NCBI RefSeq assembly: GCF_036365525.1
Contig: NC_090385.1
Span: forward strand, 59,952,611-60,016,610
From: Heterodontus francisci
Taxonomy: Eukaryota
DNA: 64,000 nucleotides
Direction: 5' to 3'
Shown here: positions 13,990-58,287 of the stretch, piece by piece
Numbering within the stretch: position 1 is the first letter of the stretch
How the letters are laid out: the number at the start of each line of letters is the position of its first letter
Notes under the pieces: generated by a model
Told to the model about the DNA's origin: nothing
Database searches by the model: none
Seen by the model: the letters and a program-made list of their open reading frames with translations, nothing else
Program-made: the position numbers and the translations under genes

Positions 13990-14305
13990 TTTTGTTTTAT
14001 TCATTCAAGGGATGTGGGCATCACTGGCAAGGCCAGCATTTATTGCCCATCCCTAATTGCTTTTGAGGAGAAGATGATGGTGAGCCACCTTCTTGAACTG
14101 TTGCAATCCATGTGGGGAAGGTACTTCCACAGTGCTGTTAGGAATAAAGTTCCAGGATTTTGACCCAGATACAGTGAAGGAATGGAGGTGTAGTTACTAG
14201 TAAAGGTGGTGTGTGGCTTGGTGGGGAACCTGGAAGTGGTGGTGGTGTTTCCATACACTTGCTGCCCTTGCCCTTCTAGGTGGTAGAGGTCATAAGTTTG
14301 GGAGG
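13990..14305 (-). mobile_element. 3' fragment of the tRNA-headed CR1-group LINE family (see 40682-44279)
   Basis: Contains atttattgcccatccctaattgc...gttccaggattttgacccag, matching 40730-40980 and 57990-58280. Confidence 0.85.
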
Positions 14306-14689: not shown

Positions 14690-14965
14690 GTAGGCCTAAG
14701 CATGATAATATTGCCTATCCCTAGCTGCTGTTGGGCCATGAAGAGTCAACCACATAATGTGGGGCTGCAGTCGCATGTTGGTCAGGCAGGATAGGGTTGG
14801 CAGGTTGCCTTCCCCAAAAGGCATTACTGAGCCAGTTGGATTGTTACACCAATCCAGCTACTTTGTATCATTTTCTGGTGATGTTCCACAAATTAATTGA
14901 TTTCCTGAATTCACTGTATTAACGCACCACGATTTGAGCTCAACCAAAATCACTAGGCTACCATG
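14690..14965 (-). mobile_element. Degraded SINE sharing body and tail with the LINE at 40682-44279
   Basis: ttgcctatccctagctgc (LINE 3' tail) is joined directly to aagagtcaaccacat...ttccccaaaaggcattactgagccagttgg (LINE 5' UTR, compare 43988-44090). Confidence 0.65.
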
Positions 14966-40681: not shown

Positions 40682-43600
40682 TTTTTTTTTTATTCGTTCA
40701 TGGGATGTGGGCATCGCTGGCCAGGCCAGCATTTATTGCCCATCCCTAATTGCCCTTGAGAAGGTGGCGGTGAACTGCCTTCTTGAACCATTGCAGTCCA
40801 TGTTGCGTAGGTACACCCACAGTGCTGTTAGGAAGGGAGTTCCAGGATTTTGACCCAGTGACAGTGAAGGAACAGCGATATAGTTCCAAGTCAGGATGTG
40901 TGTGACTTGGAGGGGAACTTGCAGGTGGTGGTGTTCCCATGCATTTGCTGCCCTTGTTCTTCTAGTTGATAGAGGTCGCGGGTTTGGAAGGTGCTGTCTA
41001 AGAAGCCTTAGTGCATTGCTGCAGTGCATCTTGTAGATGATACAGACTGCTAACACTGTGCGTTGGTGGTGGAGGGAGTGAATGTTTGTGGATGGTGTGC
41101 CAATCAAGCGGGCTGCTTTGTCATGGATGGTGTCGAGCTTCTTGAGTGTTGTTGAAACTGCACCCATCCAGGCAAGTGGAGAGTATTCCATCACACTCCT
41201 GACTTGTGCCTTGCAGATGGTGAACAATGTTACGACCAGGTGAGAAATGTGTCTGGGGGTCCCTCTCAGCCTTCACCTGGTCTTACCGAAACAACGTTTT
41301 ATTTTTAACACACTAGTTTTTTAGCTCCCCCTCGGTGAATCCTTGTTCACCGCTTTTCAATTATAAGGCAAAGGTTTAAAGAAGAAAAGTTGAAAATTTA
41401 TTAAACTTGAACTTAAACTCTAATTCGGTTGGCGCCTACGGATACACAACGCGCTCACGCTAGCATACATATGTGATACACACATGCAAATAGAAACAGA
41501 AAACAGCAGAAGAAAAATAAAGTGGAAAAGTTTAAGTAAACATCTGAAGAGGTTTGCGACGGTTCTTCAAGCTCACTGTAGAGTCCTTGATTGTAGGTAG
41601 ATCTTGCTTTTCGTTGAGGCCCAGTATTCTTCTTAAATCTTGTTCACTGTAGGAGACTTTTCTCCCTTGGGGTTCATGTGTCTTCAGTGGATTCAGAGGC
41701 TTGTGAGAAAGAGATGGGAGAGATCTTCTCGGTCTGAGAGCAAACAGTCTTTCAGTCAAGCTGTACAATTCAGAAAAAAACAGGTTGCTAAGCAGGCTAG
41801 TCATGTGATCAGCTGGTCTGACCACATCTATTTGTGGATTCTCTGGTCTTAGCCGACCCTGGAATGTCTCCTCTTATACACAATGTCTGGTGCTCAAAGT
41901 CCATTGTGGGTTAAATTGGATAAGGGAAGTAACCCATTTATCTCCACAAGCACTGTCTGTTAATATGCAAATATGAATGGTGCTGAACATTGTGCAATCA
42001 TCAGCGAACATCCACACTTCTGACCTTATGATTGAAGCAAGTTCATTGAAGAAGCAGCTGAAGATGGTTGGACCTAGGACACTACCATGAGGAACTCCTG
42101 CAGCGATGTCCTGGTGCTGAGATAATTGACCTCCAACAACCACAACCACCTTCCTTTGTGCTAGGTATGACTCTAACCAACGGAGAGTTTTTCCTCGATT
42201 CCCATTGACTCCAGTTTTGCTAGGGCTCCTTGGTGCCATGCTCAGTCAAATGCTGCCTTGATGTCAAGGGCAATCACTCTCACTTCACTTCACCTCTTGA
42301 GTACAGCTCTTTTATCCATGTTTGGACCAAGGCTATAATGAGGTCAGGAGCTGAGTGGCCCTGGCGGAACCCAAACTGAGCATCACTGAGTAAGTTATTG
42401 CTAAGCAAGTGCCACTTGATAGGACTTTTCACAACACCTTCCATAACTTTACAGATGATTGAGAGTGGACTGATGGGGCGCTAATTGGCTGGGTTGGTCT
42501 TGTCCTGCATTTTGTGTACAGGAAATACCTGGGCAATTTTCCACATTGTCAGGTAGACGCCAGTGTTGTAGCTGTACTGGAACTGCGGCAAGTGCTGGAG
42601 CACAGGTCTTCAGTTGTTTCTTGATATCACGCAGAGCAAATCAAATTGGCTGAAGACTGGCATCTATGGTGCTGGGGACTTCAGGAGGAGGCTGAGATGG
42701 ATCATCTACTCTGCACTTCTGGCTGAGATTGTTGCAAATGCTTCAGCCTTATCTTTTGCACTGATATGCTGGGCACCCCCATCATTGAGGATGGGGATAT
42801 TTGTGGAGCCACCTCCTCCAGTTAGTTGTTTAATTGTCCGCCACCATTCACGACTGGATGTGGAAGGACTGCAGAGCCTAGATCTGATTCATTGGTTATG
42901 GGATTGCTTAGCTCTATCGCATGCTGCTTACGCAGTTTGGCATGCAAGTAGTTCTGGGTTTTAGCTTCACCAGGTTGATGCCTCATGCCTGGCCTGCCCT
43001 CCAGTACTCTTCATTGAACCAGGGTTGGTCCCCTGCCTTAATGGTAATGGTAGAGTGGGGAATTTGCCAGGCCATGAGATTACAAATTGTGGTTGAGTAC
43101 AATTCTGCTGCTGCTGATGGCCCACAGTGCCTCATGGATGGCCAGCTTTGCATTGCTAGATCTGTTCGAAATCTATCCCATTTAGCATGGTGGTAGTGCC
43201 ACACAACACAATGGAGGATATTCTCAAGGTGAAGACGGGACATTGTCTCCACAAGGACTGTGCAGTGGTCACTCCTACCAATACTGTCATGGACAAATGC
43301 ATATGTGGCTGGCAGATTGGTGAGGACGACGTCAAGTCAGTTTTTCCCTCTTGTTGGTTCCCTCACCACCTGCCGCAGACCCAGTCTAGCAGCTATGTCT
43401 TTAGGGCTCAGTCAGTAGTGGTGCTACTGAGACATTCTTGGTGATGGACATTGAAGTCCCCCACCCAGAGTACATTCTGTTCCCTTGCCACTCTCAGTGC
43501 TTCCTCCAAGTGGTGTTCAACATGGAGGAGTACTGATTCATCAGCTGAGTTGGGGGGGTGGGGAGGGGGGTGGGGGTGCGGGTAGTAGGTGGTAATCAGC

Positions 43601-44279
43601 AGGTTTCCTTGCTCATGTTTGACCTGATGCCATGAGACTTCACGGGCTCTGGAGTCAATGTTGAGGATCCCAGGGCAACTCTCTCCCAACTGTATACCAC
43701 TGTCCCGCCACCTCTGCTGGGTCTGTCCTGCTGGTGGGACAGGACATACCCACGGATGGTGATGCTGGTACATTGTCTGTAAGGTATGACTGTGTCAGGC
43801 TGTTGCTTGACTAGTCTGTGGGACAGCTCTCACAACTTCGGCACAAGCCCCCAGATGTTAGTAAGGGGCACATTGCAGGGTCGGATTTGCCGTCGTTTCC
43901 GATGCCTAGGTAGATGCCGGGCAATCCTTTTGGTTTCATTCCTTATTGACTTTGTACTGGCTTGCTAGGCCATTTCAAAGGGCATGTAAGAGTCAATCAC
44001 ATTGCTGTGGGTCTGGAGTTCCATGTAGGCCTGACCAGGTAAGGACAGTAGATTTCCTTCCCTTAGGGCATGAGTGAACCAGATGGGGTTTTTTTCAACA
44101 ATCAACAATGGTTTCATGGCCATCGTTAAACTAGATTTTTTTTTTAAATTCCAGATTTTTATTAATTGAATTCAAATTCCACCTCATGCCATGGTGGAAT
44201 TTGATCCCATGTCCCCAGAACAGTACCCTGGGTCTCTGGGTTACTAGTCCAGTGACAATACCACTACGTCATTGCCTCC
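40682..44279 (-). mobile_element. Full-length single-ORF (APE endonuclease plus RT) CR1-group LINE with tRNA-like 5' head, degraded, interrupted by an LTR-like insert
   Basis: EN start LTNIWGLVPKL..RLVKQQPD (about 43790-43865), VLWVGDFNVHHQE (43408..43773), AGVPHGSVLGPTIF..FADDCT (41874..42239), KAQVRSVMEYSPLAW (40733..41227). ATGAACGAAT-polyA tail. A box 44261-44271, B box 44196-44207. Confidence 0.9.
41228..41972. mobile_element. Truncated LTR-like insert
   Basis: Begins TGTTACGACC like the 11353 element, with a similar AT-rich and CA-rich layout. No CA terminus or TSD seen, and adjacent LINE sequence is missing. Confidence 0.6.
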
Positions 44280-44699
44280 TCAAGCTTACAAGCAAGCTAT
44301 CGATGTGGAGGGGTGGGGCAAGGCAGGGCAGGGGCACACACTTAATATGTTGAGAGTTCCCACTTAACTAAGCCTACATGGGACCTGGCTTAAGTCTGGA
44401 GGTTGGTATGCCCAGTGAGATTGAGTGTCCTCCAGAAGGGCACAGGCAGCTCTCACTGGGAGGTGTCCAAGATGTTAGAGCCTGGACTAGGATCGCAAAT
44501 ATTTTTAATGAAAAATATCACATGGGGGGATGAGGGTGGTTAAGAAGTCTCTCAGAATGGGCAAGGGAGAATGGGCTCAGATAGTTACTAGAATTACATG
44601 TGGATTTTCAGGCCCTTAACGTATTATTGAAAGTACTTGGTCAATGTCCATTTAAAAAGTTATATAATTCCATGACTTCTTAAAAAACACTTCATAGTA

Positions 44700-51404: not shown

Positions 51405-54288
51405 CTACACTATTCCATTTTCATCCATATGTCTATCCAATGACCACTTAAATGCCCTTAAAGTTGGCGAATCTACTACTGCTGCAGGCAGGGCGTTCCA
51501 CGCCCTTACTACTCTCTGAGTAAAGAAACTACCTCTCACATCTGTCCTATATCTATCACCCCTCAACTTGAAGCTATGTCCCCTCGTGTTTGCCATCACC
51601 ATCCGAGGAAAAAGACGCTCACTATCCACCCTATCTAACCCTCTGATTATCTTATATGTCTCTATTAAGTCACCTCTCCTCCTCCTTCTCTCCAACGAAA
51701 ACAACCTCAAGTCCCTCAGCCTTTCCTCGTAAGACCTTCCCTCCATACCAGGCAACATCCTAGTAAATCTCCTCTGCACCCTTTCCAAAGCTTCCACATC
51801 CTTCCTATAATGCGGTGACCAGAACTGCACGCAATACTCCAGGTGCGGTCTCACCAGAGTTTTGTACAGCTGCAGCATGACCTCGTGGCTCCGAAACTCG
51901 ATCCCCCTACTAAAAAGCTAACACACCATATGCCTTCTTAACAGCCCTATTAACCTGGGTAGCAACCTTCAGGGATTTATGCACCTGGACACCAAGATCT
52001 CTCTGTTCATCTACACTACCAAGAATCTTCCCATTAGCCCAGTACTCTGCATTCCTGTTACTCCTTCCAAAGTGAATCACCTCACACTTTTCCGCATTAA
52101 ACTCCATTTGCCATCTCTCAGCCCAGCTCTGCAGCCTATCTATGTCCCTCTGTACCCGACAACATCCTTCGGCACTATCCACAACTCCACCGACCTTAGT
52201 GTCATCTGCAAATTTATTAACCCACCCTTCTACACCCTCTTCCAGGTCATTTATAAAAATGACAAATAGCAGTGGCCCCAAAACAGATCCTTGCGGTACA
52301 CCACTAGTAACTAAACTCCAGGATGAACATTTGCCATCAACCACCACCCTCTGTCTTGTTTCAGCTAGCCAATTTCTGATCCAAAGCTCTAAATCACCTT
52401 CAACCCCATACTTGCGTATTTTCTGCAATAGCCTACCGTGGGGAACCTTATCAAACGCCTTACTGAAATCCATATACACCACATCCACTGCTTTACCCTC
52501 ATCCACCTGTTTGGTCACCTTCTCGAAAAACTCAATAAGGTTTGTGAGGCACGACCTACCCGTCACAAAACCGTGCTGACTATCTCTAATGAACTTATTC
52601 TTTTCAAGATGATTATAAATCCTGTCTCTTATAACCTTTTCCAACATTTTACCCACAACCGAAGTAAGGCTCACAGGTCTATAATTACCAGGGCTGTCTC
52701 TACTCCCCTTCTTGAACAAGGGGACAACATTTGCTATCCTCCAGTCTTCCGGCACTATTCCTGTCGACAATGACGACATAAAGATCAAGGACAAAGGCTC
52801 TGCAATCTCCTCCCTAGCTTCCCAGAGAATCCGAGGATAAATCCCATCTGGCCCAGGGGACTTATCTATTTTCACACTTTCCAAAATTGATAACACCTCC
52901 TCCTTGTGAACCTCAATCCCATCTAGCCTAGTAGCCTGAATCTCAGTATTCTCAACAACATTTTCTTTCTCTACTGTAAATACTGACGCAAAATATTCAC
53001 TTAACACTTCCCCTATCTCCTCTGATTCCACACACAACTTCCCACTACTATCCTTGATTGGCCCTAATCTAACTCTAGTCATTCTTTTATTCCTGATATA
53101 CCTATAGAAAGCCTTAGGGTTTTCCCTGATCCGATCCACCAATGACTTCTCGTGTCCTCTCCTTGCTCTTCTTAGCTCTCCCTTTAGATCCTTCCTGGCT
53201 AGCTTGTAGCTCTCAAGCGCCCTAACTGAGCCTTCACGTCTCATCCTAACATAAGCCTTCTTCTTCCTCTTGACAAGCGCTTCAACTTCTTTAGTAAACC
53301 ACGGCTCCCTCGCTCGACAACTTCCTCCCTGCCTCACAGGTACATACTTATCAAGGACACACAGTAGCTGCTCCTTGAATAAGCTCCACATTTCAATTGT
53401 TCCCATCCCCTGCAGTTTCCTTCCCCATCCTACGCATCCTAAATCTTGCCTAATCGCGTCATAATTTCCTTTCCCCTTGCTATAATTCTTGCCCTGCGGT
53501 ATATACCTGTCCCTGCCCATCGCTAAGGTAAACCTAACCGAATTGTGATCACTATCACCAAAGTGCTCACCTACATCTAAATCTAACACCTGGCCGGGTT
53601 CATTTCCCAGTACCAAATCCAATGTGGCATCGCCCCTGGTTGGCCTGTCTACATACTGTGTCAGAAAACCCTCCTGCACACACTGGACAAAAACTGACCC
53701 ATCTAAAGTACTCGAACTATAGTATTTCCAGTCGATATTTGGAAAGTTAAAGTCCCCCATAACAACTACCCTGTTACTCTCGCCCCTGTCGAGAATCATC
53801 TTCGCTATCCTTTCCTCTACATCTCTGGAACTATTCGGAGGTCTATAAAAGACTCCCAACAGGGTAACCTCACCTCTCCTGTTTCTAACCTCGGCCCATA
53901 CTACCTCAGTAGACGAGTCCTCAAACGTCCTTTCTGTCGCTGTAATACTCTCCTTGATTAACAATGCCACACCCCCCCCCTCTTTTATCATCTTCTCTGT
54001 TCTTACTGAAACATCTAAATCCCGGAATCTGCAACATCCATTCCTGCCCCTGCTCTACCCATGTCTCCGAAATGGCCACTACATCGAGATCCCAGGTACC
54101 AACCCATGCTGCAAGCTCACCCACCTTATTCCAGATGCTCCTGGCGTTGAAGTAGACACACTTTAAACCAGGTTCTTGCTTGCCAGTGCCCTCTTGCGTC
54201 CTTGCAACCATATCCCTGACCTCACTACTCTCAACATCCTGTACACTGGCACTACAATTTAGGTTCCCATTCCCCTGCTGAATTAGTT
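51405..54288 (-). pseudogene. CR1 ORF2 (APE endonuclease plus reverse transcriptase), two frameshifts (about 53975 and 51912)
   Basis: [71 protein letters not shown]. One uninterrupted piece of 693 aa. Confidence 0.95.
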
Positions 54289-55217
54289 TAAACCCCCCCG
54301 AAGAGCACTAGCAAATCTCCCCCCCAGGATATTGGTACCCCTCTGGTTCAGGTGAAGACCATCCTGTTTGTAGAGGTCCCACCTACCCCAGAAAGAGCCC
54401 CAATTATCCAGGAAACCAAAACCCTCCCTCCTGCACCATCCTGCAGCCACGTGTTCAACTCCTCTCTCTCCCTATTCCTCGCTTCGCTATCACGTGGCAT
54501 GGGCAACAACCCAGAGATAACAACTCTGTTTGTTCTCGCTCTAAGCTTCCACCCTAGCTCCCTGAATTTCTGTCTTAAATCCCCATCTCTCTTCCTACCT
54601 ATGTCGTTGGTGCCTATGTGGACCACGACTTGGGGCCGCTCCCCCTCCCCCTTAAGGATCCCAAAAACACGATCCAAGACATCACGAACCCTGGCACCTG
54701 GGAGGCAACATACCAACCATGAGTCTCTCTCGTTCCCACAGAACCTCCTATCTGTTCCCCTAACTATGGAGTCCCCAATGACTAAAGTTCTGCTCCTCTT
54801 CCCCCTTCCCTTCTGAGCAACAGGGACAGTCTCTGTGCCAGATACCTGTACCCCATTGCTTACCCCTGGTAAGTCGTCCCCCGCAACAGTATCCAAAACG
54901 GTATACCTGTTGTTGAGGGAAACGGCCACAGGGGCTCCCTGCACTGCCTGCTGGTTCCCTTTCCTTCCCCTGACGGTAACCCATCTACCTACTTCTTTTA
55001 CCTGAGGTGTGACTACCTCCCCATAACTCCTCTCAATAACCTCCTCCGCCTCCCGAATGATCCGAAGTTCATCCAGCTCCAGCTCCAGTTCCCTAACGCG
55101 GTTCTCGAGGAGCTGGAGTTGGGTGCACTTCCCACAGATGCAGTCAGCAGGGACACTCTTGGCGACCCTTACCTCCCACATTCTGCAGGAGGAACATACA
55201 ACTGCCTTAACCTCCAT
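54283..55217 (-). pseudogene. CR1 ORF1 (zinc finger/leucine zipper plus SGNH esterase domain), one frameshift near 54440
   Basis: MEVKAVVCSSCRMWE..CICGKC..LQLLENRVRELELELDEL, VIGDSIVRG, VVHIGTNDIG. Natural end FASALRGGLN* with stop at 54283-54285. Confidence 0.92.
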
Positions 55218-55412
55218 TCCCACTATTCCAAATTCCCAACAAATCTACTGAAAAACCAAAAACAAAAAGTAAAAACTTGTTAGGTTAGCAATCCAACGGA
55301 CAGAACTTCTTAAATAAAAAGCTTACCTTATCAACACACCAGAGTCCTTTTTTTTGGTTAGAGGAGGAGGGTGGGTGGGAGACACTACACGTGTAGTGTC
55401 TCGGGTGCAGCC

Positions 55413-57525: not shown

Positions 57526-58287
57526 AGTCCCAGGCAATGACCATCTCCAACAAGAGAGAATCTAACCAGCTCCCCTTGACATTCAACGGCATTACCATCG
57601 CTGAATCCCCCACTATCAACATCCTAGGGGCTACCATTGACCAGAAACTGAACTGGAGAAGCCATATAAATACTGTGGCTACAAGAGCAGGTCAGAGGCT
57701 TGGAATCCTGTGGCAAGTAACTCACCTCCTGACTCCCCAAAGCCTGTCCACCATCTACAAGGCACAAGTCAGGAGTGTGATGGAATACTCTCCACTTGCC
57801 TGGATGGGTGCAGCTCCAACAACACTCAAGAAGCTCGACACCATCCAGGACAAAGCAGCCCGCTTGATTGGCACACCATCCACAAACATTCACTCCCTCC
57901 ACCACCGACGCACAGTGGCAGCAGTGTGTACCATCTACAAGATGCACTGCAACAACGCACCAAGGCTCCTTAGACAGCACCTTCCAAACTCATTACCTCT
58001 ACCACCACGAAGGACAAGAGCAGCAGGTGCATGGGAACATCACCACCTGCAAGTTCCCCTCCAAGTCACACACCATATTGACTTGAAACTAAATCGCTGT
58101 TCCTTCACTGTCGCTGGGTCAAAATCCTGGAACTCCCTTCCTAACAGCGCTGTGGGTATACCTACCCTACATGGACTGCAGCGGTTCAAGAAGGCAGCTC
58201 ACCACTACCTTCTCAAGGGCAATTAGGGATGGGCAATAAATGCTGGCACAGCCAGTGATGCCCACTTCCCATGAATGAATAAAAAAA
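57526..58287 (+). mobile_element. Young 5'-truncated copy of the tRNA-headed LINE family, in the last CETN2 intron
   Basis: Intact 229-aa ORF 57537..58226 (ILGATIDQKLNW..KAQVRSVMEYSPLAW..LHHRRTVAAVCTIYKMH). ATGAATGAAT-A7 tail. Confidence 0.93.

Follow-up and report, generated by a model that had tools for sequence, protein, structure and literature searches.

Non-LTR retrotransposons, LINEs among them, are described as Pol II transcripts (PMC5786205, PMC10886601), and SINEs are stated to be unable to encode protein (PMC5786205). In the SINE/LINE pairs Bov-tA/Bov-B, SINE2-1_ACar/Vingi-2 and SINE2_Gav/RTE-11, a head derived from tRNA and a middle part are joined to the partner LINE's tail; this LINE is itself described without a tRNA head; the text of PMC5786205 reports only RTE and Vingi elements as LINE donors for such SINEs and treats tRNA heads as additions to non-coding, deleted LINEs. 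CR1/Zenon LINEs are ~3.3 kb long, with one endonuclease–RT ORF and an A-tail, and their internally deleted partner, Persaeus, is reported in the text of PMC6740152 to have neither tRNA homology nor a Pol III promoter.

We analysed a 64,000-nucleotide stretch of the Heterodontus francisci genome (hereafter the window) that carries a copy of a 3.3-kb LINE with a tRNA-Thr-like head, a middle domain, an endonuclease–RT frame and an A-tail. The size, single ORF and A-tail of this element are those of the Zenon LINEs, and its ~390-nt deletion form, a SINE with the same head, middle domain and tail, is an internally deleted partner as Persaeus is; unlike Persaeus, the family is tRNA-headed. This SINE form also has the plan of the SINEs paired with RTE and Vingi elements, but here the coding LINE bears the head too. 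Thr-like, tRNA-derived heads are likewise described for MetaSINEs (PMC4824008). Compared by eye with the supplement alignments of that paper, the element shows no 66-nt Meta domain immediately behind its tRNA part, and we rejected this identity; the middle domain is unlike the bivalve Meta, Deu or V sequences of the same supplement. The shark SINEs HE1 and SacSINE1, compared by their descriptions, have tRNA-derived heads as well (PMC5499810, PMC3747384). T+ SINEs (Can, B2) share with the element AATAAA, a variable T run and an A-tail, but in the text of PMC9599045 they are non-coding and found only in placental mammals, and the commonest T run here is a single base.

The literature found, which lies outside Repbase, Dfam, subscription papers, figures and some supplements, contains no Pol III-transcribed or tRNA-headed coding LINE; the consulted parts of PMC11481361, PMC4758252, PMC4824008, PMC5499810, PMC4494074, PMC6740152, PMC3747384 and PMC8501958 mention no such element. 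The family may be listed in Repbase, Dfam or elsewhere under a plain CR1 or SINE name. Judged by its sequence, the tRNA-headed LINE appears to combine LINE-like copying with a SINE-like promoter layout; it would be classed neither as a SINE, because it is coding and 3.3 kb long, nor as a canonical CR1, because it has no ORF1. The SINE2 definition (non-coding, shorter than about 700 nt) takes in the ~390-nt form and leaves out the LINE.

Architecture of the element and inheritance of its head

In the original prediction, the window copy opens at its 5' end with a tRNA-like head that carries A and B boxes, with the endonuclease ~400 nt further on and no room for ORF1. Both boxes were found (Table 1), and the endonuclease TNIWG codons start at 43862, 418 nt from the element start. 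The longest frame in the first 440 nt has 46 codons, which confirms the ORF1-less state and departs from the canonical vertebrate CR1/L2 layout. A perfect 12-bp hairpin had been described over the B box; the box is there, although decayed, but the perfect hairpin needs changes private to the window copy and is therefore copy-specific. Other copies carry GGTTC(G/A)AATC or GGTTTGAATC, the canonical box with CpG decay, and the young subfamilies retain the canonical box. ARAGORN called no tRNA in the window at default settings and tRNA-Thr(AGT) in three of five subfamily consensuses only at an 80% threshold. Boxes were not significantly better conserved than spacers (0/22 versus 7/52, P 0.10; 3/22 versus 12/52, P 0.53).

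Table 1. Coordinates of the tRNA-headed LINE and related features in the window, with loci of the SINE form
Feature	Position	Strand	Remark
tRNA-headed LINE copy, whole	40682..44280	-	decayed; 85% to family consensus over 5' 1.7 kb
tRNA-derived head	44186..44280	-	tRNA-Thr-like
A box	44261..44271	-	box match in head
B box	44196..44207	-	decayed in window copy, canonical in family
Middle domain	43960..44102	-	conserved, shared with SINE form
In-frame ATG-GCC-TAG	43965..43973	-	context GAAATGG; directly 5' of open endonuclease–RT frame
Out-of-frame ATG	43937..43939	-	opens overlapping 46-codon frame
Single endonuclease and reverse transcriptase frame	40749..43964	-	broken in window copy by stops, deletions and insert
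Later unrelated insertion, ~750-nt LTR-like repeat	41228..41972	+	begins TGT on +
3' tail	40682..40748	-	common to SINE form; contains AATAAA (40737), short repeats of TGAA type and an A-tail
Sister copy, 5'-truncated	57526..58287	+	91% identical; 237-codon open frame
Older 3' fragment of the family	13990..14305	-	81% identical
SINE-form loci	L062, L064, L065, L067, L069, L123, L227, L221-L249		

The window copy belongs to subfamily D of the grouping used here, the third group in a five-group ladder. The LTR-like insert stands in place of ~320 nt of LINE. This repeat has 40 genome matches at 68–86% with ends in common, and its other end was cut by the same deletion that took the LINE sequence. 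Many copies of subfamilies C and D have a recurrent poly-C expansion at a single site in the endonuclease (43550-43586, minus strand, in the window). Also in the window is a young CR1 copy whose open frame spans 714 codons (51910-54054, minus strand); it served as a control, and an ORF1-like frame lies upstream of it at 54348-55244.

Searches of 6.0 Gb of genome sequence bore on whether the head is a fixed part of full-length copies, as had been proposed. A query of head plus endonuclease, which is biased towards this outcome, returned 39 other loci, of which 34 run on into the LINE body and five are short head-plus-tail SINEs. An unbiased query with the endonuclease sequence alone, from which 29 non-self matches were taken of 39 listed, had the tRNA part upstream in 24 of the 29 (23 of 28 distinct loci, L076 and L077 being duplicates), with a later insertion between head and endonuclease in two of the 24. 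The other five end inside the head or linker, and none of the 29 has an alternative 5' start. Among 20 loci picked for long open frames from 150 RT-end matches, six extend into the tRNA part, the other 14 being truncated. Full copies, LINE and SINE alike, begin at a short G run 10 nt 5' of the A box, and the first position is G in 29 of 34 of them, whereas the flanks are mixed and unrelated. No regular target-site duplications were seen in the copies examined.

The head is thus a fixed, co-evolving part of the LINE family. That it might instead be foreign to the element, as a chance neighbour, a SINE used as an insertion target or a repeated 5' chimera, is suggested by the abundance of the SINE form and by the Tx1 LINEs, which target small-RNA genes according to the text of PMC4494074. 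We nevertheless consider this very improbable and in effect refuted by the seamless junction in 24 of 29 unbiased loci, by the lack of heads upstream of truncated copies and of any SINE remainder behind the 3' tail of LINE copies, and by subfamily variants common to head and ORF. We likewise rejected a LINE that targets SINEs or tRNA genes for its insertion, as no shared target lies on both sides, truncated copies included; upstream of 19 truncated copies, we found no common junction sequence, only scattered short matches.

The consensus of 29 copies is 3.3 kb long and has one frame of 975 codons from stop to stop, and natural copies match PF14529/PF03372 (APE endonuclease) and PF00078 (RT) in one frame. 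Copies are 5'-truncated with a common 3' end and tail, as in an autonomous APE-type LINE. The 76 distinct copies that have both head and endonuclease fall into a five-subfamily ladder (6, 11, 17, 22 and 20 copies), along which head and ORF were inherited together: their distances at shared variable sites gave a Mantel rho of 0.80, compared with 0.29 for the best of 999 permutations. Between the oldest consensus, made from six copies, and a young consensus, 48 ORF codons differ synonymously and 33 non-synonymously, against a neutral expectation of roughly 1:3. From this excess of synonymous change over the subfamilies, we infer that the head-bearing lineage long coded for a working protein. The middle domain differs at only 6 of 155 positions between the oldest and youngest subfamilies. 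DNA queries for diverged sister families mostly brought back the young family.

The SINE form is abundant and shows no fewer than three deletion junctions among 26 copies (consensus 321>3222, 324>~3205 and 336>~3152), which occur in old and young head types. An old SINE remnant at 14734-14854 (minus strand) of the window is 76% identical to the middle domain of the family.

Among named proteins, the nearest comes from the shark Heptranchias perlo (81%); RT relatives at 31–50% are single-ORF elements of invertebrate type. A tree of 182 RT domains, built with no named references, placed the tRNA-headed LINE apart from the window CR1 and grouped it with unnamed invertebrate-type single-ORF elements, two clusters of which include Penaeus members. 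By its motifs, the element may belong to Zenon. As these sequences indicate, lack of ORF1 is a trait of the clade, headless relatives being single-ORF too. No heads were found in distant relatives among 80 metagenome loci, many of which come without their 5' end. Bacterial and viral collections gave no matches in motif scans, and the ESM Atlas returned generic RT clusters.

Depletion of T clusters in the sense strand

The sense strand had been predicted to be free of TTTT despite frequent AAAA. Outside the insert, the window copy (2305 + 545 nt) has no T run of at least four bases and 15 A runs of that length, and the sister copy holds up equally well, with no TTT in 762 nt and all four of its ORF Phe codons TTC. 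Local controls had 10, 15, 11 and 4 T4 runs in CR1 stretches and 4 in an RTE stretch. The ordinary CR1 of the window, put forward as an internal control, does have many T4 runs, but its higher content of T and Phe makes it a poor control. The absence of TTTT from the window copy compares with 5.2 expected from mononucleotide shuffles (P 0.006) and 3.3 from dinucleotide shuffles (P 0.04). The concern that a consensus might contain T4 runs was not realized: there are none in the family consensus or in the 5' 1.7 kb of the five subfamily consensuses. The zero in the family consensus compares with 1.6 expected from dinucleotide shuffles (P 0.18) and 2.1–3.1 from codon models (P 0.03–0.09). Zero TTTT taken alone is marginal, only modestly beyond chance. 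The predicted depletion under codon-preserving shuffles stands for T clusters, whereas the TTTT count is weaker than was claimed.

T clusters were clearly depleted. Under synonymous shuffles of the consensus ORF, we observed 4 TTT versus 13.2 expected and a single window with four T in five bases versus 10.9 (P 0.002 for each). A-rich windows (51 versus 55.6) and pyrimidine tracts (8 versus 4.6) were not depleted. The T-cluster depletion repeats in two natural, unedited ORFs (P 0.01–0.03), and the local CR1 and RTE controls were near expectation. Across those metagenome loci (65 of 80) whose frame runs to at least 400 codons, the observed/expected ratio of TTT was 0.95 ± 0.10 with a minimum of 0.73, compared with 0.30 for the tRNA-headed LINE. 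The closest headless relative with DNA (L140, 42%) has 7 T4 runs versus 7.8 expected.

The dinucleotides TT, TA and CG are likewise depleted in the ORF of the tRNA-headed LINE, and TTT under dinucleotide shuffles was 6 versus 11.6 expected (P 0.017). Given the low TT, TA and CG, part of the T signal may be a general sequence bias. Phe makes up 1.8% of the protein, under all 118 homologs (minimum 1.9%, median 4.4%); with relatives down to 1.9%, low Phe appears to be partly a clade trait. Two of the 65 homologous ORFs, L170 (0 versus 5.7 expected) and L172, have no T4 and no head in their contig. L170:1-3018, a metagenome contig from a distant single-ORF relative, has no T4 in 3 kb, and its 5' end is missing; it could represent a second lineage with T depletion or, given 65 tests, a chance result. 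Of the 42 T4 runs seen in copies, 10 lie in a hot spot at consensus ~1140, which was dropped as independent evidence because the same change creates a stop.

Translation start and polymerase of the tRNA-headed LINE

The ORF has no AUG of its own: no ATG precedes the first strand of the endonuclease in the open frame of any of the five subfamily consensuses. Most full-length homologs start with a Met a short distance ahead of the endonuclease, in many cases behind a basic arm, and in this the invertebrate relatives differ from the tRNA-headed LINE. L140 has an ATG just before the endonuclease. (At L140:690-740, an out-of-frame ATG frame ends just before the in-frame ATG.) In all five consensuses, the frame is open for 45 codons further upstream, across the segment that varies most, and one subfamily has a 3-nt deletion that leaves it intact. 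This extension encodes an Arg-rich stretch and is closed upstream by the TAG of ATG-GCC-TAG-CAA, a layout that the window copy shows directly. Of 76 copies, 62 retain the ATG, 53 the TAG and 55 a TTG five codons on, although the motif lies in a middle domain conserved as a whole, so conservation cannot single it out. We infer that translation starts by UAG readthrough or by a near-cognate restart.

The ten AUGs within the first 440 nt are a problem for any scanning model. An out-of-frame ATG 89 nt before the TNI codon occurs in 33 of 57 copies, but initiation there followed by a -1 frameshift is disfavoured, as this ATG is absent in all six copies of the oldest subfamily and, past it, what differs between subfamilies is synonymous when read in the endonuclease frame. 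In-frame ATGs in 16 of 67 single copies are at scattered positions and were attributed to decay. Rfam returned nothing at threshold for the element, its sole match being the T-arm to tmRNA, and a look for ribozyme and IRES motifs was negative, with folding z-scores of -1.6 to +0.4. The RNAalifold covariation term was +0.19 (14 rows, one of them, L239, on the wrong strand), which lends no support to a structure.

The 3' end consists of AATAAA, which is present twice, short TGAA repeats and then T(k)A(n). Over 75 ends, k was 1 in 32, 0 in 14, 2–3 in 15 and at least 4 in 11, with three unscored, and these counts did not support a fixed 3' terminator. The T/A boundary inside the head drifts similarly, with at least three T in 14 of 76 copies. 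The modal 3' end, with AATAAA and no terminator, suits Pol II as well. For T+ SINEs, the text of PMC9599045 describes Pol III transcripts that can be polyadenylated, terminators that are shortened and T runs that lengthen with age; 3' T-run counts therefore do not discriminate. In public RNA data, contigs covered all 30 bins of the element in four of four runs (three coded organisms and one metatranscriptome), and one run had 35 loose contig ends at the element start, although assembled contigs show neither start, strand nor cap.

We put at roughly 0.55 the probability that Pol III, directed by the internal A and B boxes, transcribes the LINE end to end and that the RNA is translated independently of a cap and copied in cis. 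TFIIIC and Pol III would start at the tRNA-derived head, read 3.3 kb with no terminator intervening and end at whichever T run comes first, within the tail or beyond it. Translation of this uncapped RNA would begin in the conserved middle domain, most probably at the in-frame AUG with readthrough of the UAG two codons later or, alternatively, at the near-cognate UUG five codons on, so that the product would carry at its N terminus an Arg-rich arm resembling the basic arms of relatives. It would then attach to the 3' tail, and the RNA would be inserted by target-primed reverse transcription. Against this reading count the marginal T4 zero, the accompanying depletion of TT, TA and CG, the two T4-free homologous ORFs, the partly clade-wide low Phe, box conservation not significantly above that of spacers, the modal 3' end, the negative IRES and ribozyme results and the ten early AUGs. 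An already single-ORF LINE of the CR1 group may have gained the SINE-type head once, by a template switch, and the SINEs would be its internal-deletion partners. In R2, translation is by a non-AUG or IRES route. R2, a Pol I co-transcript cut by a ribozyme (PMC5786205), resembles what is proposed here as an autonomous non-LTR element with a non-Pol II polymerase and uncapped RNA; it differs in being site-specific, in having no promoter of its own and another endonuclease, and in its ribozyme, as none was found in the tRNA-headed LINE.

The element could instead be a Pol II LINE whose 5' UTR is a captured SINE; the head would then act as a Pol II promoter or be a passenger, and the T depletion would reflect composition or another constraint. 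This would agree with the general description of LINEs as Pol II transcripts and with 5' UTR swaps, which are common in LINEs according to the text of PMC4758252, as well as with the two AATAAA motifs, the strong AUG context and the joint depletion of TT, TA and CG. We think it unlikely, as the element starts exactly as the SINE form does, 10 nt 5' of the A box, keeps a canonical B box in its young subfamilies and shows a depletion that is limited to T clusters, spares pyrimidine tracts and A clusters and lies far outside 65 relatives. Less probable still is a division of labour in which Pol III makes the full-length template RNA while capped read-through transcripts made by Pol II, from the same copy or from others, supply the protein. 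It would explain head and T depletion without translation of an uncapped RNA, and no IRES-like structure was found; yet the synonymous-rich ORF change of a head-bearing lineage through five subfamilies implies selection in cis, and the ORF is without its own AUG whichever polymerase is used. Returning to end-to-end transcription by Pol III, its fullest form would be a self-sufficient "protein-coding SINE", one Pol III RNA translated without a cap and without an ORF AUG, kept in sharks through several subfamilies and spawning SINEs by deletion, with the middle domain as its translation element. We hold this larger picture tentatively, at somewhat less than even odds.

The divide between SINEs and LINEs assigns Pol III to short non-coding elements and Pol II to coding ones. 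Even if transcribed by Pol II, a LINE with a SINE 5' end and a lost start codon has no counterpart in the parts of the literature searched. A headed, T-depleted coding LINE lends itself naturally to testing whether Pol III is able to produce a 3.3-kb messenger and how such a messenger is translated. It also offers a direct route to the birth of SINEs, by deletion within a head-bearing LINE, and a candidate function for the conserved SINE middle domain. If it is true that Pol III transcribes the element and that the resulting RNA is translated, this would be categorically new.
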